The notes beneath the pieces were generated by a model, which worked only from the letters and a program-made list of their open reading frames with translations, was not told where the DNA came from and did not search any database. Source: an uncultured Alphaproteobacteria bacterium (GTDB lineage Bacteria > Pseudomonadota > Alphaproteobacteria > Rs-D84). From it: DNA of 64,000 bases. Position 1 is the first letter of the stretch, and every line of letters begins with the position of its first letter. The stretch is from assembly GCA_934232895.1 (NCBI GenBank), contig CAKQGH010000002.1:15287-79286 (forward strand). Reading direction: 5' to 3'. Position numbers and translations under genes: made by a program. Shown piece by piece: positions 5,920 through 59,160 of this stretch.

Positions 5920-6354
5920 ATGAAAAAAATTATACTAACCATATTGTCCTGTGCGGCGTTGGCCGCGTGCACATTCCAGACGAAACATCGCGGATATGTT
6001 TTCCCCGATGATTTGGATGCGCGAATTGCAAATGTGAAAACAACCAAACAATTACAGGATGAAATTGGCGCGCCGTTGACCAAGACTATCCATGGGGACA
6101 CCGTGTGGATTTATTACGGGGCCGATGAAAACTATCGTGGGCCGTTGCCAAAAACATACGATAATAAAACGGTGTTGTTGGCGTGGGTGAACGGAAATCG
6201 GGTGACAAAAACGCAAATATTGCGCGATGACGATTTGCCAAATGTATTTGTTGCCGATGGCGAAACGGAAATTCCGGCGGCGATTGAATTGAACGCAATC
6301 CAAGAATTGTTTAACAATATTGGGCGGTTTACGCCGGCCGGATTGGGACAATAA
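5920..6354 (+). CDS. bamE: outer membrane protein assembly factor BamE-like lipoprotein (SmpA/OmlA domain)
   Basis: Lipobox 'LAAC' after signal peptide. SmpA_OmlA-like core with 'VWIYYG' motif. Confidence 0.55.
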   Translation: MKKIILTILSCAALAACTFQTKHRGYVFPDDLDARIANVKTTKQLQDEIGAPLTKTIHGDTVWIYYGADENYRGPLPKTYDNKTVLLAWVNGNRVTKTQILRDDDLPNVFVADGETEIPAAIELNAIQELFNNIGRFTPAGLGQ

Positions 6355-6411
6355 AAAGCATTTGGATTTTTTGCATAAATTGTGTACAATATAGACCAAG
6401 AGAGAAACAAT

Positions 6412-6951
6412 ATGAAAAAACTGATAAGTTCTTTGGTTATTTGTATGTGTGCGTTTGGTGCGGCGAATGCGGCCGAATTTACATCGTGTGGCGCGGGCTA
6501 TGTGTTGGCGCCCCATGCCCAGATTGATGGTATAAACGCGGCCGAATGTCAAAAATTGTGGTGCCGTGATTTGGAAACGGGCAAAACGATGGGCAATGGA
6601 AATACCGCGAATACCGGGTATGTTGATACACCAATTCCGAATCAGATATGCGATGCATCGGGCGCATGTATTGATTGTTTCGGCGCACGCAAATGGTGCG
6701 CGGGCGAACCGTCGGGCGAATGGAACGCAGAATATGGCGCGTATACGCGTGGTGGTGCCGATAATGCAACATTCCAATCGTATCAAAAGGGCACTTGTTT
6801 CGCATGGCGCTTGGAAAAGCCTGATTGTCCGAATGGCCAGTCCGCCATATTGCAAAACGACGAATGGGTATGCGTCACCGCCGCCGACACCACCACGGGC
6901 AGTCGCGCGTCTGGCGTGCGCCGCACCAGTGGAATGCGTCGTTTGAACTAG
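6412..6951 (+). CDS. secreted cysteine-rich protein (small member of the Cys-rich family)
   Basis: Signal peptide MKKLISSLVICMCAFGAANA; 13 Cys; RBS gagag upstream. Confidence 0.5.
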   Translation: MKKLISSLVICMCAFGAANAAEFTSCGAGYVLAPHAQIDGINAAECQKLWCRDLETGKTMGNGNTANTGYVDTPIPNQICDASGACIDCFGARKWCAGEPSGEWNAEYGAYTRGGADNATFQSYQKGTCFAWRLEKPDCPNGQSAILQNDEWVCVTAADTTTGSRASGVRRTSGMRRLN

Positions 6952-6968
6952 GATAAAATATCGCCCCC

Positions 6969-6998
6969 GGGTTCCGGGGGATTTTTTTTAGTCAACTA
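6969..6998 (+). terminator. rho-independent terminator (cccccgggttccggggg + T-tract)
   Basis: GC hairpin followed by tttttttt after the stop of the 6412 gene. Confidence 0.5.
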
Positions 6999-7069
6999 TT
7001 TGTTTTTTATGTTTTTTGTGCTATAATATGTGTGTTGAGAGAATGGCAACCGCAAAGGGTAAAGTAATT

Positions 7070-7636
7070 ATGCCAAGCAAAAAATTAGATTTTAAGACCG
7101 GACAATATGTTGTTTATCCAACCCAGGGCGTTGGTAAACTGGTCCGCACCGAAGAGCAAACAATCGGTGACCAGAAAATAAAGATGCTGGTAATTGATTT
7201 TGAGCGAAACCACATGACATTGCGTGTGCCGGTTGAACGTGCCGAGATTTCTGGGCTGCGCCCACTGACCACCGCCAAAAAAATGGACGAGGCAATCGCA
7301 TCGGCCAAGGGCAAGGCCGGCGCAAAGCGTATGATTTGGGCGCGTCGTGCGGCACAGTACGAGGAAAACATAAATTCCGGCGACCCCATGAAATTGGCCG
7401 AGGTTGTACGCGACCTGCAACGGCGCAGTGCGGCGGACACAATGACATTTTCGGCGCGTCAATTGTATCTGCGCGCGTTGGAACGTATGGCCCAGGAATT
7501 TGCCGTTCTGCATAAAATCGATTTGGATGCCGCGTCCGATAAAATAGAAGACATCTTGGGCATTCCCAAGGAAATAGACCTGAACGCCGCCGGTGTTGAT
7601 GACGACGACGAAATGGATGACGAAGATTCCGAATAA
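7070..7636 (+). CDS. CarD/CdnL-family transcriptional regulator (RNAP-interacting)
   Basis: N-terminal 'FKTGQYVVYPTQGVGKLVR' CarD_TRCF domain; acidic C-terminal tail. Alternative start ATG 7043. Confidence 0.75.
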   Translation: MPSKKLDFKTGQYVVYPTQGVGKLVRTEEQTIGDQKIKMLVIDFERNHMTLRVPVERAEISGLRPLTTAKKMDEAIASAKGKAGAKRMIWARRAAQYEENINSGDPMKLAEVVRDLQRRSAADTMTFSARQLYLRALERMAQEFAVLHKIDLDAASDKIEDILGIPKEIDLNAAGVDDDDEMDDEDSE

Positions 7637-7662
7637 AAACCGCCCCACGGGGCGGTTTTTAA
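7637..7662 (+). terminator. rho-independent terminator
   Basis: aaaaccgccccacggggcggttttt immediately after the stop. Confidence 0.7.
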
Positions 7663-8095
7663 TTAGAGAGCAAAGAGCAATGAGCAGAGAGCAATGAAAT
7701 CCTCTTCACTGGGCGAAGGGGTGTCCGCGCAAGCGGACGGGGTAGTGGTAAATATGTCCCCGCAGGGCAATGGTGACCCTCCTGCGCGGGGATGACAATT
7801 CTTTTTATGTGCTGTGTTCTGTATCTTCGTCGCTGACTAAGTTCTCCTCCTGTGGAGGAGTACCGCGTAGCGGGGTGGTCTTGAGAGTGCGCAAAGTTGT
7901 ACAAAGTTTCAAAAAACGACTACCCCGCCGGGCATATGCCCGGCACCCCTTCTGGCCATAAGGGGATTTAATTGCGTATCCCTGTTGTGGTCTAAATTCC
8001 CCTTCGCTGGCGAAGGGGTGGACGCGTAGCGGACGGGGTAGTGGTAAACAAGTCCCCGCAGGGACAAATAAAAAAACTCCATAAAAATCCCCGCA
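7663..8095. repeat. cluster of RPE-like short palindromic repeat units
   Basis: Units recurring elsewhere in the window: 'ccccttcgctggcgaaggggtg' (x2), 'gacggggtagtggtaaa' (x2), 'gtccccgcaggga' (x2), 'ctcctcctgtggaggag...gggtggtcttgagagtgc', and AGAGCAR heptamers after the stop. Confidence 0.8.
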
Positions 8096-9519: not shown

Positions 9520-9795
9520 TATAGAGTTTTAAGAATGTGGTTCGCGTGTTGGCCTCTCTACGCAATCGCCCACGAAATAAAAAATTTCGTGGGTGGTTCC
9601 CGGAGGGGAATTTGTTTTTCACGTCGCGGGATGAATTCCCCTTCGCTGGCGAAAGGGTGTCCGCATACGCGGACGGGGTAGTGGTAAAACGACACCCCGG
9701 CACTCCGTGTCACCCCTCTGGCCAGAGGGGAACAAAGCAAGTGCGCCGAATGGCGCACACATTATTTGAACTTTGCACTTTGGTATTTGAACTTT
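9520..9795. repeat. RPE-like palindromic repeat cluster
   Basis: 'cccacgaaataaaaaatttcgtggg', 'ccccttcgctggcgaaagggtg', 'gacggggtagtggtaaaacgacaccccggcactccgtgtcacccctctggccagaggggaac'. Confidence 0.75.
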
Positions 9796-18611: not shown

Positions 18612-19592
18612 TAGTGTAAAAAAGAGCAATGAGCAGAGAGCAGAGAGCAATGAAGCGCGCCATTCGGCGTCTTATATTCTTGTCATTCCTGCGTAGGCAG
18701 GAATAGGGCCTTGGAAATTACTCTCACTTGGTGTTGTACAATATTTGGTAAAAAAGTGAATATCAATATCACTGTACACCGCAACATTCTGGGTTTGGCT
18801 CGTTGACACTCGCACTGTATAGTCCCTATTCCTGCCTGCGCAGGAATGACAATCTTTGGGTTCTGTCATTGCGAGCGGAGCGTGGCAATCCAGTAAACGA
18901 CACCCCGTCGCGTTGCGCCACCCCGGCTTTCCAGAGGGGAACAAAGCTCATCATCGTCGCGGAGCAAAATCCCCTTCGCTAAGCGAAGGGGTGACCACGA
19001 AGTGGGCGGGGTAGTGGTAAATACACCCCCGCGGGGCAATGGTGACCCTCCTGCGCCGGCATGACGTTTTTTTGTGCTGTGTCCCTGTATCCCCATCGCG
19101 GAGCAAGTTCCCCACCGGTGGAGGGGTGGCCGCCAGGCCGGGGTGGTCTTGAGAGTGCAATGTGGAATAAATGTAAGACAAAAGACCACCACTCCGCTGC
19201 GCGGTACTCCTCCACAGGAGGAGAACTTGGTATGCTCCCGTTGCGGACTTCTCCGCTGGCAGAACCCCGGGTCGGGGTGATAATTCTTTTTTTGGGGGGG
19301 CGCATCCCTAGCGTGGACTCTCACTTGCCGTCATACCGGCGCAGGCCGGTATCTATTGCCCCGCAGGGACAAAAAGACCACCCCGGCACTCCGTGCCACC
19401 CCTCCACCGGAGGGGAACTTAGTATGTACCGAGAATAAACAAAATTCCCCGTCGCTTGGCCCCCCACGCAAAAAAAAATTTCAATTTCGTGGGACCAGTG
19501 TCGTGGTGGCACGAAGTGCCGGGGTAGTGGTGATTGCGTGTTGCCGGCATCCAAAATAATTCCTGGTGCGGGCGGGGCGGGTGTGATATGGT
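18612..19592. repeat. ~1 kb intergenic hotspot made almost entirely of RPE-like palindromic units plus a MITE copy
   Basis: AGAGCAR heptamers, MITE (18682-18850), 'gtcattgcgagcggagcgtggcaatcca', 'tccccttcgctaagcgaaggggtg', 'ggggtagtggtaaa', 'gttccccaccggtggaggggtg', 'gtcataccggcgcaggccggtat', 'caccccggcactccgtgccacccctccaccggaggggaac', 'cccacgcaaaaaaaaatttcaatttcgtggg'. Confidence 0.85.
18682..18850. mobile_element. MITE-like element copy 1 (~169 bp, ~27 bp hairpin-forming terminal inverted repeats)
   Basis: TIRs 'gtcattcctgcgtaggcaggaataggg' / 'ccctattcctgcctgcgcaggaatgac'. The interior matches copies at 55576-55746 and 58808-58978. Confidence 0.8.
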
Positions 19593-35855: not shown

Positions 35856-36755
35856 GTGCCACGTGTTTCGGTATTGATGCCTGCATATAATTCGGCAAAG
35901 TATATTGCAGAGGCTATTGAAAGTATTCTGAACCAGACATTTACGGATTTTGAATTTATCATTATAAACGATGGGTCAACCGATGATACACCCAAAATTG
36001 TGCGCAAATACGCCGCGCGTGATCCACGCATAAAATTTATTGATAACAGGCGGAACCAGGGTTTAATCGCCGTCCTGAACCAGGGGTTGGATTTATGCAC
36101 CGGTGAATATATCGCCCGCATGGACAGTGACGATATATCCCGCCCAGAACGTTTCAAATTACAGGTTGATTACATGGACTCGCACCCAAATGTCAGCGTT
36201 GTTGGTGGAAAAATAAAGGTGTTTGGTTCCCTGACATGTATCCCAGAATATTCGCCAACCATCAAATTGTTCGACTTGCTGATATACGGCAGCCGCGTTT
36301 CGCATCCAACTGCAATGATACGCACATCGGTTTTGCGGAATAATAAAATATATTATGATCCCAAATATCCCCATGCCGAGGATTATGGATTTTGGGTTTC
36401 TATCGCGCGCGCGTCCGAAATCCATAATTTGCAAACGGTGTTACTGGACTATCGCTGGCATGATACAAATGTGTCGGTTTTACATCATAAAACCCAGACG
36501 GAAAGTGCGGAACGCGTTCGTCACGATTTGTTGGAAACGGTTTTAACAAATGACAAAGATGTAAAAAAATTACTGAATCTGACACGCGAATTGCACCAAC
36601 ATTTTTGGCTGTTTGGATTTTTACCCATTATTCGTCGCAAACAATATTCAATTACCAAGACGAAGTATTATCTGTTTGAAAAAATCCCGTTATTACGTAT
36701 TCAGGACGGAAAAATATACCTGTTTGAATTTATAAAAATAGGAAGCCTGCGATGA
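35856..36755 (+). CDS. family 2 glycosyltransferase
   Basis: GTG start with RBS acaggagg. 'VSVLMPAYNSAKYIAEAIESILNQTFTDFEFIIINDGSTD' GT-A fold, 'ARMDSDD'. Confidence 0.8.
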   Translation: MPRVSVLMPAYNSAKYIAEAIESILNQTFTDFEFIIINDGSTDDTPKIVRKYAARDPRIKFIDNRRNQGLIAVLNQGLDLCTGEYIARMDSDDISRPERFKLQVDYMDSHPNVSVVGGKIKVFGSLTCIPEYSPTIKLFDLLIYGSRVSHPTAMIRTSVLRNNKIYYDPKYPHAEDYGFWVSIARASEIHNLQTVLLDYRWHDTNVSVLHHKTQTESAERVRHDLLETVLTNDKDVKKLLNLTRELHQHFWLFGFLPIIRRKQYSITKTKYYLFEKIPLLRIQDGKIYLFEFIKIGSLR

Positions 36756-38683
36756 ACCCGATAAATATTGCATTTTGTATCAATGATGGGTACACACCCC
36801 AACTGGCGGTGGTTTTAACCTCAATCATGAAAAACACCACGCGCAATGTCGTGGCGTATGTTTTTTCATCTGATATGTCGGATGCGTCCAAACAGAAATT
36901 AAATAAACTGAAATTATTTTTCAAAAAACTGACCATAAATTTTGTTGCCGTATCTGATGCGAAATTACGGGCGTTGCCCCGCACAATTGATTACATATCG
37001 GTTGAAACATATTACCGGTATTTAATCCCAGAATTGTTGCCAGAATTGGACAAGATTTTATATCTGGACGCCGACATCGTCGTTCGTGGCGATATTGCGC
37101 CACTGTATGACTTTGATATATCGGGTTATTATATCGCCGGCGCAAATGATTTATGGGTGTGTGACACAAAGTACAAGGAAAAAATCAGATTTGCCCAAAA
37201 TGAATTGTATGTAAATGCCGGCGTTTTGCTGATGAATTTGAAAAAAATGCGTGCCGACAAAATGGCCCAGACATTGATTCAAGAAACCACCAAATTGGCT
37301 GGCAAAATTCAGTATCAGGATCAAGATGTCTTGAACATCGTATGCCGAGGTCATGTCGCAGAATTTGACAGCATTTATAACTATACATCGCACAACATAT
37401 ACGATGAACGTGCGAAATTAAATTCGGCGGTAATCATTCACTATACGGGTTCCAAAAAGCCGTGGCTGAAAGATAAACGCCACCCGATGAAGAAATTTTG
37501 GATGAAATACGCAAAGGAGTATAAAAAAATGGCACATAAAAAATTACGTGTTGCATTACTGATTGATGAATTTTTTGGCGGGGCAGGTACTGCTTTCGGC
37601 GGATATGGGGCATTGGCGCGTAAGTATATTGCGAAATATATACCATGTGACGATATTAAAATGGATGTTTTATTGGGCGGTCGTGGGCATCGGTTCACAT
37701 CACGTAAATACCATGTTGATAACGTCAATTTGTATAATTTACCGCGCAAACATTGGGCGTCGCGTTTATTCTTGCGTCGCAAAAACTATGATGTGTATTT
37801 GTCCATTGAATTGACCGATGATTGGGTTTTGCGTCATGAAACAAATAAAAACAAGAAACTGATTTTGTGGATTCAAGACCCCCGGCCAAAATCAGCGTGG
37901 GAGAACACAATTGACACAATGCAATCAATCAAGGACCCTTGTTTTTATACAGAACATATATATAAAACTGTAAATGCGTGGAATGCGGCTGGTCGAGTAA
38001 AATTTATATCACAGGGATATTGTTTGAATCCATTAGCATTTGAATTGTATAGTTTGCCGGCTAATACACCTGTACAGTATTTGCCTAATCCAATTGAAAT
38101 GGATATGCAATTCAAATTTGATATAAACAAGAAAAAGAAACAAATTATTTTCCTTGGACGGCTAGAGGCACAAAAACGGTGTTGGATGTTTTGCGAAATA
38201 GCAAGGCGCATGCCAGAGTATGAATTTTATGTATTAGGCCAATTTTTCCGATACAAGGAAGACAATATTCGGATGATGGAACCATATATGCATAACGATA
38301 TTTCGAATTTGCATTTTGTTGGGCATGTTGATGGCGAAACCAAAGCAAAACTGATACGAGAATCGCGTATGTTGGTCAGTACTGCAATATGGGAGGGTAT
38401 ACCAATTTCATGGCTAGAAGTATTGTCGTACGGTACGGTGATAGTGTCAGATTTGGAACGTGAGAATTTAGTAAAACAGTTCGGTAAAATGGTTGGTGAA
38501 ATCCCGGGCGACGGATTTGACGGAGTGGATAAGTTTATACCTGCCATACGTGAATTGATGGAAAACGATGCTTTGTACATCAAGAAGGCGGCAGGAGCAA
38601 TAAAATACGTTCGTAAAATTCACAACATTCCAAAATTTATCAACGACATGCGAAATGTCATATACCAAGAGGCAGGAAAATGA
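36752..38683 (+). CDS. bifunctional glycosyltransferase (N-terminal GT8 LPS-glycosyltransferase-like domain fused to C-terminal GT4/GT1-type domain)
   Basis: GT8: 'NIAFCINDGYTPQLAVV...YLDADIVVRGDIAPL...HYTGSKKPW'. GT4: 'GRLEAQKR...EGIPISWLEVLSYGTVIVSD'. ATGA overlap with the upstream GT2. Confidence 0.7.
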   Translation: MNPINIAFCINDGYTPQLAVVLTSIMKNTTRNVVAYVFSSDMSDASKQKLNKLKLFFKKLTINFVAVSDAKLRALPRTIDYISVETYYRYLIPELLPELDKILYLDADIVVRGDIAPLYDFDISGYYIAGANDLWVCDTKYKEKIRFAQNELYVNAGVLLMNLKKMRADKMAQTLIQETTKLAGKIQYQDQDVLNIVCRGHVAEFDSIYNYTSHNIYDERAKLNSAVIIHYTGSKKPWLKDKRHPMKKFWMKYAKEYKKMAHKKLRVALLIDEFFGGAGTAFGGYGALARKYIAKYIPCDDIKMDVLLGGRGHRFTSRKYHVDNVNLYNLPRKHWASRLFLRRKNYDVYLSIELTDDWVLRHETNKNKKLILWIQDPRPKSAWENTIDTMQSIKDPCFYTEHIYKTVNAWNAAGRVKFISQGYCLNPLAFELYSLPANTPVQYLPNPIEMDMQFKFDINKKKKQIIFLGRLEAQKRCWMFCEIARRMPEYEFYVLGQFFRYKEDNIRMMEPYMHNDISNLHFVGHVDGETKAKLIRESRMLVSTAIWEGIPISWLEVLSYGTVIVSDLERENLVKQFGKMVGEIPGDGFDGVDKFIPAIRELMENDALYIKKAAGAIKYVRKIHNIPKFINDMRNVIYQEAGK

Positions 38684-40179
38684 TTTTAATGTATCATAAA
38701 ATTGATAAAGAAGCGAAAACAAGATTTTATGTATCTGTTGACGATTTTAAACGTCAAATGCAGGAATTGTCAGATAAAAAGGTTGTTACGCTTGATAAAT
38801 ACGATAAAAATAACCCTGAACATATAGTAATCACATTTGATGGTGTTTATGAAAATGTATATAAATATGCATTTCCTGTATTAAAAAAATATGGTTATCC
38901 TTTTCATCTTTTTATAACATCTGATTTTATCGGCAAAGACAATGCGTTTGATACAGCAGAACCTTTGACGACATTTGCTACATTTGATCAGTTAAAGGAA
39001 ATGGCTGCCAATGGTGCAATTCTAGAATGGCATACTAAAACGCATCGGCAATTCACAGAACAAATGACAGATGATGAAATAATATCAGAGCTGACCATTC
39101 CGGCGGATGTTAAATCTTTACAACCAAATGGATTTAAATATTTTGCGTTCCCTTTCGGATTGCTATCAAAAGATAAATTACACTTAGTTAAAACGCGTTT
39201 TGCTGGTGCACTCTCCGTTTGGCAGGGAAATAATCATGATGACTATAAACTGAATAGATTGGAAGTTCACACTGGACATACATTTGATAAAAATAGTGTG
39301 TTTTTTAGAAATCCATTGGATAGAGGCCTGATAAGCGTTGTTGTTCCAACATATAACGTAGAGGCACATGTTGAGGATTTTTTCAAAAGCATTTTATCTC
39401 AAACATACAAGAATCTTGAAATTATAATGGTTATGGATGCGCCGACAGATAATACATTGGAGATTGTGCGTTCATATGCCAAAGAGGACAAAAGAATTAA
39501 AATAATAGAAAATGAACAAAATATGGGGGTTGCCAAGACACTGTGCCGTGGATATATGGCGGCTACGGGTGATTTTTGTGCAACTATGTCGCCTGATGAT
39601 ACAATAGACATGTTCTATTTTGAAAACCTGATTGAGAAATACAAGCAAACTAACAGTGATGTTGTTTGTGCAAGGATGTTGGCGTCCCAAGACAATTATA
39701 TGTTTTCAGATGGAACAGATTTTACCTTTTATCCGTTTGCCGCAAAAATCGGTGCATTGTTCTATTTTTATCCTGCAATGGTAAGGCGAAAGATAATTGT
39801 TGAAAATAATATCTGGAACGAAACAATGGTTGAAAGACATTGGGAAGATATAATTATTAGATGCAAGTATGCTTATTATGCCAATCGAGTATCAGTTGCC
39901 ACAAAGGCAATAAGATATTATACCATCAGAAAAACGTCATTGTCACATGCGCCGACGCCACAACAGTTGGAATATCAACAAATTGCGGAACGTCGTTCAA
40001 CTGATTTTTTGCATTGCTGTGGAATAGACGATGTACGTATCAATATAGTTGGCGGGTTCCGTGTTATCGGTGGTTGGAATATCAAAGCGTTTTTTATGGA
40101 AAATCGTGTTGATAACCATAACGAGACAAAGAAAAAACATCATTCTTTTTGGTGGCACTTGGTGCGTATGAAATTCTAG
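38680..40179 (+). CDS. bifunctional polysaccharide deacetylase (NodB-like) fused to a family 2 glycosyltransferase
   Basis: 'MYHKI...ITFDGVYENVYKYAFPVLKKYGYP' NodB-like. 'LISVVVPTYNVEAHVEDFFKSILSQTYKNLEIIMVMDAPTD' GT2. ATGA overlap. Confidence 0.7.
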   Translation: MILMYHKIDKEAKTRFYVSVDDFKRQMQELSDKKVVTLDKYDKNNPEHIVITFDGVYENVYKYAFPVLKKYGYPFHLFITSDFIGKDNAFDTAEPLTTFATFDQLKEMAANGAILEWHTKTHRQFTEQMTDDEIISELTIPADVKSLQPNGFKYFAFPFGLLSKDKLHLVKTRFAGALSVWQGNNHDDYKLNRLEVHTGHTFDKNSVFFRNPLDRGLISVVVPTYNVEAHVEDFFKSILSQTYKNLEIIMVMDAPTDNTLEIVRSYAKEDKRIKIIENEQNMGVAKTLCRGYMAATGDFCATMSPDDTIDMFYFENLIEKYKQTNSDVVCARMLASQDNYMFSDGTDFTFYPFAAKIGALFYFYPAMVRRKIIVENNIWNETMVERHWEDIIIRCKYAYYANRVSVATKAIRYYTIRKTSLSHAPTPQQLEYQQIAERRSTDFLHCCGIDDVRINIVGGFRVIGGWNIKAFFMENRVDNHNETKKKHHSFWWHLVRMKF

Positions 40180-40211: not shown

Positions 40212-40667
40212 TTATTTTATGCATGGCACAATCTTGCCGATGATTGTGCTGTTGCCACCGTATTGCAATTGATATTTATATCCACATGGAACCGGAATTG
40301 AAAACGACATATATCGTGTGGTATTCAGGTCGTCATCTTGGAACATATAGGTCATGACAATTTGGTCGTTGGCGTCCAGTATTTTTATACTGGCGGTTGC
40401 GTTCCATATTAATTTTATGTATCCCTGTAAAAACAGGTTTTCATTGGCGGTATATGTGCCGATGCCTGTAATGGCCGATGATCTTGCATAATCGGGCATT
40501 AAATTAAACACCGCATCGGCGCGTGCCAGCATTGTGCCGCCGGCGGTCACGCCATCGTGCACGCGAATGGTCTTGTTGGTGGTGTCAACGGTAATCTCGC
40601 CATCGGCCCCGGTAAAGTTTGCGTGCTCGTCGGCGGTCCCACGCCGAAACTGAATTTGTCTTGCCAT
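40212..40667 (-). CDS. small protein with phage tail-fibre-type N-terminal domain (MxxxIQxRRGT...)
   Basis: 'MARQIQFRRGTADEHANFTGADGEITVDTTNKTIRVHDGVTAGG' resembles the conserved N-terminus of phage tail fibre / Mtd-like proteins. Confidence 0.45.
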   Translation of the reverse strand: MARQIQFRRGTADEHANFTGADGEITVDTTNKTIRVHDGVTAGGTMLARADAVFNLMPDYARSSAITGIGTYTANENLFLQGYIKLIWNATASIKILDANDQIVMTYMFQDDDLNTTRYMSFSIPVPCGYKYQLQYGGNSTIIGKIVPCIK

Positions 40668-40908
40668 GTATTGGTCTCCTTGTGATTATATGGCAAGATG
40701 TTTGAAGGACCCGCCAAATGTTATTTTCTGTATGTGTGTTTTGGAAAACCGCATAACCGGCAAGATAAGTGCAACGAAATAAAAAAAAACGACCAAAATG
40801 GTCGCGGTCCTTATCTGGTTGCTTGGTGTGCATTATACCACAAATGCCCCCAAAAATCAATTGAAATTTGTTTTGAATTTATTCGTGGCATGGCGTATGA
40901 TTGACGCA

Positions 40909-42264
40909 ATGAAATGTTTTATATCTGCTTTTTTGTTGGGGGCGTTTATGCCGGCCGTCGCCGCCGCGGTGGACGCGGCCCCGGCCGCCGGCACAACTGA
41001 AATTACCATGACCACGACCCAGGCCATGCAACTGGCGGGAAAATTGGTACAATCGGGCGATATTGAACACGCAACCCAAATTTTAACTATGACGCCCAAC
41101 ACCGGAAACGGCGAACTGGAAACCGAGCGGTGGTTTTTGCTGGCGCAAATTGCATCGCGGCGGGGCGATATTGATGAGGCAATTCGCATTTATCAAAAAA
41201 TACTGGATGCACGCCCCAATGCGGCCCGCGTGCGGTTTGAATTGGCATTGTGCTATATGCACCAGGGCCGGTGGTCGCGTGCGGATTATCATCTGCGCCT
41301 GGCCATGGCGGGGGACGATTTGTCCGACGATGTAAAACGGATGATGAATTACTATCGCTATGTCGTGCGCCAGAACAAAAATTGGAACGTGTATTTTAAT
41401 TTTGGTGCCGCCCCCGACAATAACATAAACAACGCGACCGGCGGTGCAGAGTGTGTTATGACCATCTGGGGGGCGTTCTGTCGCGATTTGCCCGCGCCGG
41501 AATCGGCGGTTGGCACCAATTTCCAGCTGGGTGGTGATTACGAATTCAAATTATCAGACCGGTGGCGCTGGAAATCAGATGCGGGCATATACACAAATAT
41601 TTATAACAAACACCAATACGACGATTTGTATTTGTCCGCCGGGACCGGCCCGCGGTATGTATGGTCGCGTGGCGATGTGTGGTTGGCGGGAACGGTTGCG
41701 CGGCGCTGGTACGATTGGCGCCGGTATAATTGGTCGGCTGGGGCCAAGCTGAATGCTAATTATGATTTCACGCGCAAAATGTCGGGCGGGTTGACATTGT
41801 CGGCAATGAATAATCGCTATGATGAATATGGCGATTTCCTGGATGGAAAAACATACGGCGCGTCCGCCCGCATAGTGTATTCGTTTAACGCGGGGGTGTA
41901 TACGGTGCTGCGTGGTGGTTTTTCGCGTGAATTGGCGGCCAGCCCGACATATTCGTATCGCCAACCGAGCCTGTCCGTGGGCATAGGTGCGGAATTGCCA
42001 TGGGGATTTGGCATTTATGCCGAGCCCAGCATTTATTGGACACGATATGACGGCGCGCGTTGGGCGGTCCGTGACGGCCAAATCAGCGAGATTACCGAAC
42101 GCGATTTCACGCATCGGTATGCGGTGTCGGTGTCAAATAATAAACTGGATGTACTGGGGTTTGTGCCGACCATCACGGTCAGTTATACCCGTCGCGATTC
42201 CAATATGTGGCAGCGCGAGTTTAGCAAAACCGCCATTGAATTCACCATGATGCAACGGTTCTAA
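40909..42264 (+). CDS. outer-membrane protein with N-terminal TPR region and C-terminal beta-barrel (DUF560/Slam-like architecture)
   Basis: Signal peptide MKCFISAFLLGAFMPAVAAAV; TPR-like helices 'ALCYMHQGRWSRADYHLRLA'; ~300 aa of alternating beta-strands ending in Phe. Confidence 0.4.
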   Translation: MKCFISAFLLGAFMPAVAAAVDAAPAAGTTEITMTTTQAMQLAGKLVQSGDIEHATQILTMTPNTGNGELETERWFLLAQIASRRGDIDEAIRIYQKILDARPNAARVRFELALCYMHQGRWSRADYHLRLAMAGDDLSDDVKRMMNYYRYVVRQNKNWNVYFNFGAAPDNNINNATGGAECVMTIWGAFCRDLPAPESAVGTNFQLGGDYEFKLSDRWRWKSDAGIYTNIYNKHQYDDLYLSAGTGPRYVWSRGDVWLAGTVARRWYDWRRYNWSAGAKLNANYDFTRKMSGGLTLSAMNNRYDEYGDFLDGKTYGASARIVYSFNAGVYTVLRGGFSRELAASPTYSYRQPSLSVGIGAELPWGFGIYAEPSIYWTRYDGARWAVRDGQISEITERDFTHRYAVSVSNNKLDVLGFVPTITVSYTRRDSNMWQREFSKTAIEFTMMQRF

Positions 42265-42451
42265 ACAGAGAGCAGAGTGTAGAGAGCAGAGAGCAATGAA
42301 AAGTGAGCAAGTGACAGAGCGATAAAGTGATACAGTTTTTTCTACGAACATAATTCATTTTCTGCGGAATATTATTTTTAAGTCGTCATACCGACGAAGG
42401 TCGGTATCCATTGCCCCGCAGGGACTGATAATACCACTACCCCGTCCGCCC
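42265..42451. repeat. left ~185 bp inverted repeat (IR-L) of the invertase/adhesin cassette
   Basis: Reverse complement matches 45338-45523 at ~90% identity, including the unique stretch 'aagtgagcaagtgacagagcgataaagtgatacag...ttctgcggaatattatttttaagtcgtcataccgacgaagg...ctgataataccactaccccgtccgccc'. Confidence 0.8.
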
Positions 42452-42596
42452 AGGGCGTCCACCCCTTCGCCAGCGAAGGGGAATTTGATAGAGTCACCCT
42501 CTTGTCATTGCGAGCGCAGCGTGGCAATCCATAAAACGACACCCCGGCACTGCGTGCCACCCCTCTCGCCAGAGGGGAACTTTCATTGCTCTCTAT
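42452..42596. repeat. RPE-like unit cluster inside the cassette
   Basis: 'caccccttcgccagcgaagggg', 'gtcattgcgagcgcagcgtggcaatcca', 'caccccggcactgcgtgccacccctctcgccagaggggaac'. Confidence 0.75.
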
Positions 42597-42626
42597 GAAA
42601 AAACCGCCCGGTGGGGCGGTTTCGAA
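42597..42626 (-). terminator. rho-independent terminator of the adhesin gene
   Basis: On the minus strand: cgaaaccgccccaccgggcggtttttt. Confidence 0.65.
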
Positions 42627-42648
42627 AGGATAAAAAACAAACTGTCAA

Positions 42649-44352
42649 TTAAAACAATTTGAATTTATAGTTCGTGCCGGCACGGAACGCAACATCTGCG
42701 TCAGAGATACCAGCGCCAACATTGACAGACCAGTTATTGGTCAGACCCATCGCGGCACCAAATGCCACCGCGGATTGGCTGTTATAGTTGCCAAAACCGG
42801 CGCCAACGGACACTTCGCCGCGTTCAACACCAGATACGGCGACCGACGACAATGCGACCGAGCTGGCAATACCCGCAGACAGGTTTTTGTCCAGTTTATC
42901 GATTCTTTGGTCGGTGTATGCATTTGCAGCCGCCAGCGAGAATGCCGCGCGTTCATCCGCGTATGCTTTCGCGCTGTTCAATGTCATCGCATCTTGGGCA
43001 ACCGCATATTCTTTTGCGGTGTTCAGTGTTGCTTCGTCAGCCAAGGCAAACGCTTCACGAACGGCGGTATCTTTTTCATCTGTGTATGTTTTTGCAGATG
43101 CCAAAGTTGCCTGGTCCCCAGCGGTCATATCAGAACGAATTTGATCATCAGCTGCGGCAAATTCACTGCGAACTGCGTCGTCCCCAGCGGTCATATCAGA
43201 ACGAATTTGATCATCAGCTGCGGCAAATTCACTGCGAACTGCGTCGTCCCCGGCGGTCATATCAGAACGAATTTGATCATCAGCTGCGGCAAATTCACTG
43301 CGAACTGCATCGTCCCCGGCGGTCAAAGCATCATTGATTACGCCACCGTCGGCAACCGATGCGGAAATAGCGTCGTTTGCACGATTGTCAATTGTATCGG
43401 TAATCGGCGCATCAAAGATTTCGCGCGCGGCCGCCTGGCGTTCATTGTCCGCGGTCCATGCATTGGACGTGGTTTCCTGGTTCGCCAATGCGGCGTTCCA
43501 TTGTTCGCCCGCGTTTGCAATTGTTGCATAACGTTCGTTCAGTTCGTTGACCGTATTTGTGTCGTTTTCAAACACTGTATTGGCGGCATTGAATAATGGT
43601 GCTTCTGCGGCATATTCCGCACCTGTTTCGGTCTTGGCGGCATCAACACTTGCCGTGTCGGTTGTGAACGCCGTCTGCATTTCGTTGAATGCGTTTTCCA
43701 ATGCCGAACCCGGTTCTGGATCAACCAGTCCGCCACGGTCGTCGACCAATCTGCTGCCATCCGCATTCAGACGAAATTCACGACCTTCTGCATCTGTGTA
43801 TTTATAGCGTGTGCCATCAAATGTCGGGGCGTCACCGTTTTTCACGGTGATGGTTGCATCGTCTCCAGATACGTATGTGCTGTTCAGTGTAACATCCTGG
43901 GAAAAATCAGGTACAGATTCGCCCAATGTCACATCTTCGCCCGCGCTGTTTTTGTATTTGTAATTTGCGCGATCCATTGTTGCGCCTGCAACAATGTCCT
44001 GGGTCGTGGTGATGTCACCAGTTGCGCCGGATGTGCCGATATAATCGGACTGTTGCGGCAGGCTGTCCGTATTTTCTGGGTCGTATGCCTGCCAGTTGCC
44101 AGCGGTGTCTTTGTATTTAAAGTCGTCCGCGTTTGGTCCATCGGCATAGTTTTTGGTAACCGTACTGCCATTATAATCAGTATATGTGTAATTATAATTT
44201 GCAGAATCCAGGTCTGTGCCAGCATTCTGTTCTGTGCCGTTTGCGGTCGTATATTTACCAGCAAATGTCACATCAGTAGTTGCCGCGTGTGCGCCGGCGA
44301 ACGCCAAAATGCCCGCCAGTGAAAACGCAGTCAAAACCAAAGGTTTTTTCAT
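42649..44352 (-). CDS. trimeric autotransporter adhesin (type Vc; YadA-like C-terminal membrane anchor)
   Basis: Signal peptide MKKPLVLTAFSLAGILAFAGAHA; stalk with neck-like 'TLxSAKxYTD' repeats and three identical 22-aa repeats. C-terminus 'IDKLDKNLSAGIASSVALSSVAV...GEVSVGAGFGNYNSQSAVAFGAAMGLTNNWSVNVGAGISDADVAFRAGTNYKF' matches the YadA_anchor pattern. RBS aagagga. Confidence 0.8.
   Translation of the reverse strand: MKKPLVLTAFSLAGILAFAGAHAATTDVTFAGKYTTANGTEQNAGTDLDSANYNYTYTDYNGSTVTKNYADGPNADDFKYKDTAGNWQAYDPENTDSLPQQSDYIGTSGATGDITTTQDIVAGATMDRANYKYKNSAGEDVTLGESVPDFSQDVTLNSTYVSGDDATITVKNGDAPTFDGTRYKYTDAEGREFRLNADGSRLVDDRGGLVDPEPGSALENAFNEMQTAFTTDTASVDAAKTETGAEYAAEAPLFNAANTVFENDTNTVNELNERYATIANAGEQWNAALANQETTSNAWTADNERQAAAREIFDAPITDTIDNRANDAISASVADGGVINDALTAGDDAVRSEFAAADDQIRSDMTAGDDAVRSEFAAADDQIRSDMTAGDDAVRSEFAAADDQIRSDMTAGDQATLASAKTYTDEKDTAVREAFALADEATLNTAKEYAVAQDAMTLNSAKAYADERAAFSLAAANAYTDQRIDKLDKNLSAGIASSVALSSVAVSGVERGEVSVGAGFGNYNSQSAVAFGAAMGLTNNWSVNVGAGISDADVAFRAGTNYKFKLF
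43123..43320. repeat. 3 x 66 bp perfect tandem direct repeat inside the adhesin stalk coding region
   Basis: Unit 'ggtcatatcagaacgaatttgatcatcagctgcggcaaattcactgcgaactgcgtcgtcccc[a/g]gc' x3, encoding AGDDAVRSEFAAADDQIRSDMT. Confidence 0.9.
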
Positions 44353-44386
44353 GTTTTTTCCTCTTATTTAAATTAATTTAAACCGT

Positions 44387-44408
44387 GATGCGTGGTGCAC
44401 CACGCATC
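44387..44408. promoter_or_regulatory. perfect 22 bp palindrome (10-2-10) 35 bp upstream of the adhesin start codon
   Basis: gatgcgtggtGCaccacgcatc. Confidence 0.5.
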
Positions 44409-44412
44409 TACT

Positions 44413-44438
44413 CTTACACAAACGAACGTTTGTGTAAG
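44413..44438. promoter_or_regulatory. perfect 26 bp palindrome with 12-2-12 geometry (hix/gix-like candidate recombinase or operator site)
   Basis: cttacacaaacgAAcgtttgtgtaag. Confidence 0.5.
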
Positions 44439-44471
44439 TGCCAGTGGTCAGTATTCTTACGGCAACGGCCA

Positions 44472-44503
44472 AATGTCTGGAATCCGTTATAATCCAGACA
44501 TTT
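44472..44503 (+). promoter_or_regulatory. 10 bp inverted repeat enclosing a consensus TATAAT -10 box (candidate operator-overlapped promoter of the recombinase gene)
   Basis: aatgtctggaatccgTTATAATccagacatt. Confidence 0.4.
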
Positions 44504-44588
44504 TTTGTTGTGGAATAATATGATTTGAATATAGAAAAAAACAGTTGATTTAATCGTTCGTTTAAAATGACAGAAATAGGAGGAAAAA

Positions 44589-45242
44589 ATATCATTCATA
44601 GGATATATTCGTGTCAGTTCAAATAAACAAACTGTGGCACATCAACGTTTTGAAATTAGCCAGTTTGCTGCTGCACACAAAATCACAATAGACCGGTGGG
44701 TCCAAGAAACGGTATCGTCGCGCCAACCGTTGGATAAACGACAGTTGGGCGAATTATTGCATGAATTGAAACATGAAGATGTTTTGATTTCGTGTGAAAT
44801 ATCGCGCCTGGGGCGTTCGTTGCTGGAGGTAATGCGAATCTTGGAAACATGTATGAACAGTGGCGCCCAAGTTTGGACAATCAAAGAAAATTACCGATTG
44901 GGCGATGATATACAAAGCAAAGTTATGGCGTTTGCGTTCGGACTGGCCGCAGAAATTGAGCGAAATTTAATATCGCAACGCACTCGGGCGTCGTTGAACA
45001 ATATTCGCGCCGCAGGCAAAAAGTTGGGGCGCCCATTTTCGGCACAATCAAAAAAACTGAAACTGACGCGCAATGCACATAAAATAAAGCAATTACTGGA
45101 TGCGGGGGTATCACGATATAAAATTGCCCAAGTTATGCATGTCCAGCCTATAACGGTGAATCGTTTTACCAAGCGCATGGGGTGGGATAAATTTATTAGA
45201 GAGCAGGGTGCATCCGTCTCCGCTGACGCTCCGCCGCGATAA
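44589..45242 (+). CDS. serine recombinase of the DNA invertase/resolvase family (Hin/Gin/Pin-like)
   Basis: In-frame N-terminus 'IGYIRVSSNKQ' (catalytic Ser motif) lies upstream of the track's GTG start (44634). It is preceded by AGGAGG at 44577-44582 but has no ATG/GTG/TTG; a possible ATA start is at 44589. 'ISRLGRS', 'EIERNLISQRTRASL', 'GRP', C-terminal HTH. Confidence 0.8.
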   Translation: MSFIGYIRVSSNKQTVAHQRFEISQFAAAHKITIDRWVQETVSSRQPLDKRQLGELLHELKHEDVLISCEISRLGRSLLEVMRILETCMNSGAQVWTIKENYRLGDDIQSKVMAFAFGLAAEIERNLISQRTRASLNNIRAAGKKLGRPFSAQSKKLKLTRNAHKIKQLLDAGVSRYKIAQVMHVQPITVNRFTKRMGWDKFIREQGASVSADAPPR

Positions 45243-45262
45243 AGAGAGCAGAGAGCAATGAC

Positions 45263-45290
45263 GCGCGCCGGTGGCGCGCCTGTTTTTTAT
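45263..45290 (+). terminator. rho-independent terminator after the recombinase gene
   Basis: gcgcgccggtggcgcgcctgtttttt. Confidence 0.7.
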
Positions 45291-45337
45291 CGTCGCGGAC
45301 CAAGTTCCCCTCCGGTGGAGGGGTGGTGCGAAGCACC

Positions 45338-45523
45338 GGGCGGACGGGGTAGTGGTATTATCAGCCCCTGCGGGGCAATGGTGGCCCTCCTTCGTCGGTA
45401 TGACGACTTAAAAATAATATTCCGCAGAAAATGAAATATGTTCGTAGAAAAAAACTGTATCACTTTATCACTCTGTCACTTACTCACTTTCATTGCTCTT
45501 TGCTCTCTGATCTTTGCTCTCTG
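45338..45523. repeat. right ~185 bp inverted repeat (IR-R) of the invertase/adhesin cassette
   Basis: Reverse complement of 42265-42451. Confidence 0.8.
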
Positions 45524-45527
45524 AATA

Positions 45528-45556
45528 AGAAACGCGCCGGTGGCGCGTTTCTTATT
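45528..45556. terminator. bidirectional terminator (aagaaacgcgccggtggcgcgtttctt) at the 3' end of the tolC-like gene
   Basis: Perfect hairpin flanked by A/T runs on both sides. Confidence 0.65.
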
Positions 45557-46841
45557 CCTGTTGTGTTGTTGTCAGCCCCAGATTTTCCGGTGTCAACAGG
45601 CCCGTGGCCGACATAACTGCAAAGAATGCCGATATGCGCCCAAATTTTGCGTTGGCCAATGATACATTGGTGTTCAACAATTCTTGTTCCGCATTCAGCA
45701 CATCCAACACCGTACGGCGCCCGCGTTTTTGTTCGTCACGCGTTCCGTTCAATGCCATTTTGGCGGCCGCAACGCCAGATTCGGCGGCGCTGATTGCCGC
45801 CGCCTGGGCGTCGTACATATTCCATGCCTGGTGCAATTTTTCAGATATAACGCGGCGAGCGTTTACGATTTGCGCCTGAATTCCATCAACGGTATATCGC
45901 ACCTTGTCCACATTGGCAAAGGCGTTGCCCTTGTCATACAGTGGCATTTTCAAATACACACCAATGCGGCTGTCGCGGGCGCGGTCAATGTATGGAATAT
46001 CATCCACCTGCATTACGGCACCGCGTACATCAACCGATGGCAACATAGAATGACGTGCGACAACAATTTGTTCACGCGCGGCGCGTTCGTGTGATTCCAG
46101 CGCGCGCAGGGCGGGGTGATTTTTCAGTGCATATTCATTTGCCGCATCAACCGATTCTGGGAATAATTTTTCCATGCGTTCCAAATCAATTTCTGTAAAT
46201 TCGGTGGGCGCATCACCCGCAATACGGCGGAATGTTTCAACGGCGTTGTCGTATTTTGCCTGGGCATCGGCCAATGCATATCGTGCCATTTCCACACGCG
46301 CAGATGCCTGGGCGGTGTCGGTTTTGGTTAAACGGCCAACACGCGCATTATCGGCGCAATAGTTATAATATTCTTGTAATACGCGCTGATTATTTTGGTT
46401 CAGTTTCAAAACCTCGGCCGCGCGCAGAACATCGACATAGGCATTTATTGCGTTCAAAAATACATCAGATTCGGTTGCATACAATGATGCGGTTTCGGCA
46501 TCGCGTGCGGCGCGCGCACCCTTGTATTGGGCAATGGTTGAAAAGCCCTGGAATATATTTTGTTGAAATTCAACACCAATGCCGGTTGGGTTATAATCAA
46601 ATGTGTAATCGCCAATTTTGGTACGCGCCGCGCCCGCATTTGCCGACAGTCCCAAATACGGTTTGAACCCCGCACTGGACGCCGATACATTGGCATCGGC
46701 GGCGTTCACATTTGCTCGTCCACTGTTTATTATTGGGTTGGTTTCGTATATGGTTTGCAGTTCCGAATACATATCGGCATTTGCCGATGTTGCAATCGTT
46801 GCCAACATCATACCAGCCAAAAAATAATTGTTTTTCATCAA
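45552..46841 (-). CDS. TolC-family outer membrane efflux protein
   Basis: Signal peptide; two-repeat OEP structure; 429 aa. Confidence 0.75.
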   Translation of the reverse strand: MMKNNYFLAGMMLATIATSANADMYSELQTIYETNPIINSGRANVNAADANVSASSAGFKPYLGLSANAGAARTKIGDYTFDYNPTGIGVEFQQNIFQGFSTIAQYKGARAARDAETASLYATESDVFLNAINAYVDVLRAAEVLKLNQNNQRVLQEYYNYCADNARVGRLTKTDTAQASARVEMARYALADAQAKYDNAVETFRRIAGDAPTEFTEIDLERMEKLFPESVDAANEYALKNHPALRALESHERAAREQIVVARHSMLPSVDVRGAVMQVDDIPYIDRARDSRIGVYLKMPLYDKGNAFANVDKVRYTVDGIQAQIVNARRVISEKLHQAWNMYDAQAAAISAAESGVAAAKMALNGTRDEQKRGRRTVLDVLNAEQELLNTNVSLANAKFGRISAFFAVMSATGLLTPENLGLTTTQQE

Positions 46842-58978: not shown

Positions 58979-59160
58979 AATTTTTTGGGAATTAGTGTTT
59001 CCTGTCATTACGAGCAGAACGTGGCAATCCAGAAAACGACACCCCGGCACTTCGTGCCACCCCGGCTTCCCGGCGGAAAACCTGGATTGTGCTTGTCGCG
59101 GTAAAATTTTTATTGTATTTTCTGGTGTGCGCACTACAATGGCAATGAATAATAACCCAG
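58979..59160. repeat. RPE-like unit cluster
   Basis: 'cctgtcattacgagcagaacgtggcaatccagaaaacgacaccccggcacttcgtgccaccccggcttcccggcgg'. Confidence 0.7.

Follow-up and report, generated by a model that had tools for sequence, protein, structure and literature searches.

Within a 64-kb stretch of DNA from an uncultured alphaproteobacterium of the order Rs-D84 (contig CAKQGH010000002.1; the whole stretch of 64,000 nucleotides is referred to as the window), a gene for a small serine recombinase and a divergently transcribed gene for a trimeric autotransporter adhesin (TAA) are enclosed by two long inverted repeats, which raises the question of which DNA this recombinase inverts. Members of the order Rs-D84 have genomes under 1 Mb and probably a partner-dependent lifestyle (PMC12306168). 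An earlier note on this DNA read the locus as an invertible cassette, i.e., the two arms of ~185 bp were taken to be the recombination sites of a Hin/Gin-family invertase that flips both genes together. Our analysis points instead to two separate things, and we consider this two-part explanation likely: the long arms are incidental, while an Mpi-like invertase, a ~130-bp segment and a divergent surface-protein gene form a self-contained inversion module. The real substrate of the recombinase is, on this explanation, the ~130-bp segment 44427-44556 between the TAA and recombinase genes. We found no account, in the literature searched, of a regulatory switch in this lineage, of Enterousia/Rs-D84 invertons or of alphaproteobacterial invertons driven by a serine recombinase.

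The evidence that carries this reading comes from ~80 related loci of Candidatus Enterousia/Rs-D84 gut Alphaproteobacteria (loci are denoted by L numbers and proteins by P numbers). Chance matches in AT-rich DNA swamped a generic search that sought the best 16-nt inverted repeat ahead of each recombinase, and a motif-anchored analysis was used instead, by which the orientation of the segment was called in 45 loci. Nearly all genome-fetched loci carry a recombinase-side half-site, CG-TT-C(T/G)(A/T)TTAAA, 34-71 nt upstream of the recombinase start. To the left of this proximal core the loci fall into two classes: 36 analysed loci, the window included, read ...TGTTGATTTAATCG (orientation A), and the remaining loci have a half-site of the ...ACACAAACG type. 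Nine loci of the second class (orientation B) have the reverse complement, CGATTAAATCAACA, at the distal site, ~130-145 bp away. When the interiors of these nine are flipped they match the 36 A loci as far as ...ATCG-TT and diverge past the core into the cargo-side flank; divergence only beyond this point, after reverse-complementing, is the pattern that inversion at the 2-bp core leaves behind.

Two comparisons between close relatives bring this down to single loci. In one species with an identical recombinase (P0049), five loci (L099, L100, L101, L102 and L104) have one orientation and four (L097, L098, L103 and L105) the other. The flanks of L099 and L097 are identical at 300/300 and 700/700 positions, and the 128-nt interior matches only as its reverse complement. 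The two interiors (~1312-1441) do differ at 9 positions despite the 100% identical flanks. The second comparison concerns the orthologous locus: the window and sister sequences were used to predict the flipped proximal junction, ACACAAACGTTCSTTTAAAATGACAG, and a single metagenome scan detected it in one contig, L106. L106 carries the Slam/TAA/recombinase/TolC locus, ~95% identical to the A-state L012, and its 144-nt segment is inverted relative to L012 at 95.8% identity, with both junctions matching the prediction. Three contigs, L004 (at AAACG/TT), L055 and L060, begin at crossover sites. L052 opens (positions 1-20) with a B-type junction (TTAATAG-AA-CGTTTGT) and later has an A-type junction, which suggests both states in one sample; contigs that start at the sites and hybrid ends such as this arise because assemblers treat mixed populations in this way. 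In relatives, natural populations thus contain the segment either way round, and the breakpoints coincide with the 2-bp core.

The window has the same layout (Table 1). We scanned it with a half-site model built from 52 family sites, the window left out. The proximal site, whose core lies 31 nt upstream of the recombinase start, gave the best score in the 64 kb (29.8 bits) and the distal dyad the second best; beyond the proximal and the correctly placed distal site, nothing in the whole-window scan rose above the shuffled background. The conserved gene-adjacent segment argues for local action of the recombinase. The two sites are different palindromes with a common core of only about A(A/T)CG-WW-CG(A/T)T (~12 bp), and the distal dyad is invariant in relatives, with variable adjacent sequence. 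Both are 26-bp sites in inverted orientation, with AA as the core of one and TT as that of the other, and in relatives the breakpoints fall at this core. Both orientations between fixed flanks were found in the homologous modules L097/L099 and in the ortholog pair L106/L012, not in the window's own species. On the two-part explanation, the invertase cuts at the 2-bp cores and flips 44427-44556, creating the two B junctions predicted in Table 1. A 33-nt inverted repeat (79%; 44351-44383/44560-44592) also links the leader and ribosome-binding-site regions of the TAA and recombinase genes, and is present in L010 too.

Table 1 Features of the locus, with positions counted from the first letter of the window; A and B denote the two orientations of the segment
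Feature	Position	Strand	Remarks
Left arm of long inverted repeat	42266-42459	strandless	Convergent Slam/TAA 3' intergenic region; modules A, B and C
Arm module A			GAGAGC repeats
Arm module B	42301-42384		~84 nt; core specific to the arm pair within the window
Arm module C			REP-like hairpin unit, dispersed
TAA gene, YadA anchor	42649-44352	-	567 aa; YadA_anchor E=2.9e-11; predicted switch cargo
GC-rich hairpin in TAA 5' leader	44384-44404	-	Between switch and TAA ribosome-binding site; terminator-like match
Fixed cargo-side hexamer AAGAGT	44410-44415	-	Candidate -10; in the flipped state 17 nt from TTGATT
Distal crossover site CTTACACAAACG-AA-CGTTTGTGTAAG	44413-44438	strandless	12-2-12 perfect dyad; core AA 44425-44426
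Invertible segment	44427-44556		130 bp; orientation A in the window; conserved end ...CAGTTGATTTAATCG
Hairpin plus T-run	~44471-44505		Inside the invertible segment
TTGATT	44545-44550		Candidate mobile -35 at the conserved end of the segment
Proximal crossover site TTGATTTAATCG-TT-CGTTTAAAATGA	44545-44570	strandless	12-2-12; core TT 44557-44558
A-left junction			CTTACACAAACGAACGTTTGTGTAAGTGCC; orientation A
A-right junction			CAGTTGATTTAATCGTTCGTTTAAAATGACAG; orientation A
B-left junction			CTTACACAAACGAACGATTAAATCAACTG; predicted for the flipped state
B-right junction			CACTTACACAAACGTTCGTTTAAAATGACAG; predicted for the flipped state
Small Mpi-like serine recombinase	44589-45242	+	217 codons counted from ATA 44589
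Intrinsic terminator 3' of recombinase gene	45263-45279	+	Inside the arm-enclosed segment; terminator prediction
Right arm of long inverted repeat	45330-45523	strandless	Convergent recombinase/TolC 3' intergenic region

The long arms that suggested a cassette are themselves real. In alignment they are ~195 nt long and 91% identical as reverse complements, and the blastn match grows to 224 nt at 88% identity (E=4e-75), far beyond chance; the repeat search returned the same structure as three contiguous inverted pairs, i.e., 42336-42459/45330-45453 (124 nt, 92%), 42300-42341/45449-45490 (42 nt, 95%) and 42266-42301/45488-45523 (36 nt, 86%). The earlier note had described arms of ~90% identity with a unique core of ~100 bp amid dispersed units, around exactly two divergent genes, and this description is confirmed, with module B as the part confined to the pair within the window and the YadA-anchored TAA and the Resolvase-domain protein as the two genes.

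What the note made of the arms has fared less well, and the sequence comparisons do not support them as the substrate of the recombinase. The half-site model gives them no more than -4.3 and -11.6 bits, compared with 29.8 for the proximal site, i.e., they hold no site of the recombinase's type. A candidate within the arms, CTACGAACAT, shares just ACGAAC with the true sites, has a negative score and was rejected. Strains with the identical recombinase lack the arms or have different ones. In L089, L090 and L092 the recombinase and the 236-bp TAA/recombinase intergenic region are 100% identical to those of the window, left modules B and C are absent, and the flanks share just an unrelated 65-nt inverted repeat, which is an inverted copy of the recombinase 3' tail bounded by GAGAGC motifs; the right arm was found in L089. 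L012, L013 and L106 have no flanking repeat (the spacer between recombinase and TolC in L106 is 22 nt), and in L010 the TAA-plus-recombinase pair stands in another genomic context, next to a tRNA gene, and has no arms.

Nor was the cassette seen in both orientations. All 9 independent assemblies reaching across both sides, and 6 partial assemblies as well, have the order Slam (+), TAA (-), recombinase (+), TolC (-), with none inverted. The note had said that a single orientation, together with arms made of a dispersed composite repeat, would speak against it, and at the level of assemblies this is largely what we found. Because both genes, their shared control region and the terminators all lie inside the arms, inversion of the whole cassette would have no evident effect. 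A coding inversion of the shufflon or G-segment type finds no footing either, as the arm-enclosed region consists of two complete genes and no silent TAA fragments were found in it. That the invertase recombines the two ~185-bp arms and flips a 3.2-kb cassette of TAA and recombinase genes for phase or antigenic variation is thus very improbable, in spite of the length and similarity of the arms, the flanking inverted repeats of a sister species (L002 and L006; 130 nt, 99%) and a patchy arm identity which suggests that the arms exchange sequence; the recombinase has its cognate sites elsewhere, at 44413-44438 and 44545-44570. The part of the note that survives is the idea of a DNA-inversion system associated with a TAA, since the switch adjoins the TAA gene; the 3.2-kb cassette is not supported as the invertible unit.

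The same arms could be put to use in two other ways. Rare homologous inversion between them in this strain, dependent on RecA, free of the invertase and with no regulatory role, would be compatible with the two-part explanation; ~195 nt at 91% includes exact stretches sufficient for homologous recombination, and the mosaic identity of the arms fits gene conversion. We regard it as quite unlikely nonetheless, given that the inverted cassette is in no assembly examined and that 9% divergence between the arms lowers recombination efficiency. Alternatively, a mobile element with the TAA and recombinase genes as its load could have the arms as its terminal inverted repeats, an idea to which the different context of the pair in L010 (by a tRNA gene and others) and the recurrence of the gene pair as a module in many contexts lend some colour. 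Homology with L010 ends inside the arm positions (window 42597-45192), however, and L010 is without arms; the outer arm ends show no target-site duplication (TCTAAA/CAGAGAG ... CTCTCTG/AATAAG), and at one fixed chromosomal position the arms differ from strain to strain. The mobile-element reading is very improbable and was rejected.

The arms are incidental, strain-specific mosaics of modules resembling repetitive extragenic palindromes (REP) and miniature inverted-repeat transposable elements (MITE), which populate the 3' intergenic regions of this organism. By blastn within the window, diverged copies of 42384-42487 lie at 7697-7796, 7994-8063, 9634-9686, 18965-19066 and 19329-19370, and copies of the CAGAGAGCAGAG part of the arm at 7657-7699, 18623-18654 and 45243-45261. 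Two sister-species loci with the same recombinase protein, L001 and L002, differ in arm structure. Identity between the arms is patchy, at 95% in module B and 88% in module C in the window, and 89% and 99%, respectively, in L002, which suggests gene conversion between the arms. An Rfam search of 42000-45800 gave only sub-threshold chance matches.

Comparison with the sister species (L001/L002) also hints at how the left arm came about. The Slam gene, switch region, recombinase and TolC genes are 80-82% identical between the window and this species, whereas the TAA gene is 89-97% identical, and the left intergenic region is 97.6% identical to that of L002, with modules B and C at 100%. The higher identity of the TAA gene and its downstream repeats indicates that the adhesin allele was recently exchanged between species, and this exchange appears, on these identities, to have delivered a left copy of modules that were already present on the right.

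Several further observations concern these modules and their surroundings. Clusters akin to the arms and their surroundings lie at 7630-8070, 9610-9740, 18620-19440 and 59000-59063 of the window, and the REP/MITE-like family they represent appears undescribed. The recombinase ends in a C-terminal tail (REQGASVSADAPPR) that comes from a GAGAGC-bounded repeat module (45196-45261), of which other strains carry an inverted 65-nt copy directly after the TAA stop (L089 4030-4094). The left arm is preceded by a Slam-type gene (40798-42264, +; SlipAM E=4e-38) and the right arm is followed by the TolC gene (45552-46841, -). Between the Slam gene and a glycosyltransferase gene, a 151-aa protein (40212-40667, -) has an N-terminal phage major tropism determinant domain (Mtd_N, E=1e-15). 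The stretch ~36000-40000, which includes a glycosyltransferase/deacetylase gene, is low in GC (35-41% vs ~48-50% elsewhere) and is rearranged relative to L010.

The recombinase itself is a serine DNA invertase relative. Its PF00239 Resolvase domain (E=2.2e-30) covers residues 4-145, and R8, S10, R73 and R76 are present and invariant in the family alignment. Against NCBIfam NF009949, 'master DNA invertase Mpi family', it scores 263.3 bits over residues 4-198, below the cutoff of 272, and the close homologues P0049 and P0062 carry the NCBI name Mpi family; by profile score the protein is thus best described as Mpi-like, not as an Mpi equivalog. The HTH_38 score of 20 bits is under the cutoff of 27, and homologues have precomputed PF13936 matches. 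The nearest solved structures are of Gin (4m6f, 3uj3; best E=8.8e-9, 38.9 bits); the earlier note was right as to the type of enzyme, and the closer sequence neighbourhood is that of Mpi. Homologues come from uncultured gut Alphaproteobacteria, i.e., 'Candidatus Enterousia', 'uncultured Rickettsiales' UMGS1303/1304 and metagenome-assembled genomes from Hadza, ruminant and horse samples; a 211-kb Hadza contig (L091/L094) matches the window. L010 (CAVGNU010000004.1) belongs to a bin labelled 'Bacteroides fragilis', yet the contig is clearly from a relative of the window organism.

The start of the recombinase gene is unusual. The catalytic GYIRVSS motif named in the earlier note is present and in frame, but between the upstream in-frame stop (TAG 44577-44579) and the motif there is no ATG, GTG or TTG. 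An ATA codon (44589) aligns with the ATG of the homologues instead, with AGGAGG (44578-44583) 5 nt upstream. The first canonical start is GTG 44634, downstream of the catalytic serine, where gene callers begin the protein (P0003); the 15 codons ahead of it, GYIRVSS included, are intact. ATA also stands in L089, L090, L092 and L093, with an identical protein, and in L010 at 5% nucleotide divergence, which makes six assemblies of two lineages and means that the codon is not a sequencing error. Between these two ATA-bearing lineages (window vs L010) the ratio of nonsynonymous to synonymous substitution (omega, dN/dS) is 0.07 with dS = 0.20, i.e., the gene is under purifying selection. ATA initiates translation weakly in bacteria.

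These findings matter for the state of the switch in the window's own species, and here lie two points that weigh against an active switch. The window/L091, L089, L090, L092 and L093, all of this species, and the closest relative L010 are in orientation A throughout, and the recombinases of all these assemblies start with ATA, not ATG; the switch could therefore be very slow or locked in this species. Our evidence is moreover from assemblies, which show the majority state only, and this limits the two-part explanation as a whole. It is conceivable that the switch is real in the family and locked or decaying here, in which case a protein begun at GTG 44634, where the gene callers place it, would be a DNA-binding protein without the catalytic serine that may only repress or bind the sites. 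We think this unlikely, since the gene has stayed constrained (omega = 0.07 over dS = 0.20) after the two ATA lineages split, both sites are intact with the distal one a perfect dyad, a strong AGGAGG precedes the ATA, the codons for the catalytic motif persist and ATA does allow weak initiation. The ATA start would probably hold the level of invertase, and hence switching, low. With both sites intact and the recombinase gene constrained, slow switching is more likely than a dead switch.

Across the family the module keeps its form while its cargo changes. Most loci have a divergent gene whose start is generally 170-270 nt away from that of the recombinase gene, the segment lying in between. 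A YadA anchor was found in 19/48 divergent neighbours; others are outer-membrane protein (OMP) beta-barrel, Opacity, Surface_Ag_2, OmpA or classical autotransporter proteins, three are DNA methyltransferases and many have no Pfam match. The cargo genes are mostly surface proteins. The TAA-plus-recombinase pair recurs as a module in many contexts, and several genomes carry two or three recombinase copies. Two or three recombinase-plus-switch modules per genome are seen, e.g., in L017/L029/L058 and L021/L035/L085, and L061 has two tandem recombinase genes (6001-7325). Where the cargo is a DNA methyltransferase, the module may confer phase-variable methylation. The TAA gene varies in a further way, for it contains 66-nt (22-aa) tandem repeats at 43108-43330, and TAA lengths of 523, 545 or 567 aa in strains with identical recombinase reflect copy-number variation of this repeat.

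How flipping would control transcription of the TAA gene can be proposed from the layout. On the TAA side, 60 nt of fixed DNA separate the distal site from the start of the gene and are filled by the GC hairpin and the ribosome-binding site, and 31 nt remain on the recombinase side, so the promoters must lie in or across the segment. In the B state, the mobile -35 TTGATT and the fixed cargo-side -10 would form a full promoter ahead of the 5' hairpin, the ribosome-binding site and the TAA start, with the transcript starting directly before the hairpin; the A state, in which the window stands, would accordingly be OFF. A hexamer nAnnnT occupies, in 32/46 family loci, the cargo-side position which flipping places 17 nt from TTGATT; other offsets give it in 0-11 loci. 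This hexamer averages 3.87/6 matches to TATAAT, with examples such as TATAAT, TATAGT, TACAAT and AATAAT, and reads AAGAGT in the window. The pattern suggests a promoter assembled only in orientation B. Three points qualify this proposal: neither the window region nor the 45 oriented interiors yielded a consistent promoter or direction in scans for the sigma-70 consensus; a -35-like CTTACA stands at an equal spacing of 17 nt in the A state of the window, which blurs the ON/OFF contrast; and the -10-like hexamer shares bases with the outermost part of the recombinase half-site, so that its conservation could in part be due to this overlap.

A wider proposal is that the Rs-D84/'Enterousia' lineage has multiplied a split-promoter module, in which the crossover site serves as the spacer, unlike palindromes become hybrid after a flip and the invertase is tuned by its ATA start, as its main means of varying the attachment surface; this is tentative, and we would put it at somewhat less than an even chance. 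The locus shows that an invertase need not act on long inverted repeats that surround its gene; here its substrate is probably the short-repeat switch. It also offers a conserved, testable module, predicted to control adhesins, outer-membrane proteins and DNA methylases in an uncultured lineage that is common in the guts of humans and animals. Phase variation of the TAA, if real, would bear on how cells that are presumably partner- or host-attached cope with adhesion and with immune or phage pressure, and with the exact junction sequences the switch can be measured directly in metagenomic reads that already exist.

Both parts of the locus have counterparts among known systems. The arms resemble REP/BIME, Correia and RPE elements, which are likewise short modular palindromic units downstream of genes, variable between strains and found in either orientation; they differ in that the modules are bounded by CAGAGAGC motifs, that one of them forms the C-terminal tail of the recombinase, and that their family appears to be undescribed.

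For the switch, one close counterpart is Mpi, the 'master' serine DNA invertase of Bacteroides fragilis, which flips invertible polysaccharide promoters (PMC4747536, PMC5903667). Besides the NF009949 neighbourhood, both are small serine recombinases that flip short promoter-bearing segments for surface structures in a gut bacterium, the promoter being predicted in our case. Mpi, however, works in trans, with 13 or more dispersed regions as its targets, and its gene is not bound to any single one of them (PMC4747536, PMC5903667), whereas each recombinase gene here adjoins its own segment and cargo, with several modules per genome. The 64 kb of the window yielded a single site pair, the host, an alphaproteobacterium, has a reduced genome, and the score falls under the equivalog cutoff of 272. 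The B. fragilis Mpi repeat consensus, which we take to be ARACGTWCGT, may resemble AAACGTTCGT in the distal site, a lead that was not used as evidence.

With Hin/hix of Salmonella fljBA and with Gin, Cin and Pin, the system shares a serine invertase, 26-bp sites of 12-2-12 form and an asymmetric AA/TT core that sets orientation, and with Hin a putative switching of the promoter kind. Sequence similarity to Hin/Gin is distant (E ~1e-8), the recombinase gene lies outside the invertible segment, which is 130 bp long vs ~1-3 kb, and the two sites are unlike palindromes beyond the ~12-bp core. Parallels among adhesin switches are fimS with FimB/FimE and ipuS, which controls the autotransporter UpaE in E. 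coli (PMC6083910): in each a short invertible promoter element beside its recombinase gene or genes turns an adhesin ON or OFF, and UpaE, like the cargo here, is an autotransporter. Those elements are flipped by tyrosine recombinases and contain the whole promoter, whereas the module described here uses a serine recombinase and may split its promoter across the crossover site.

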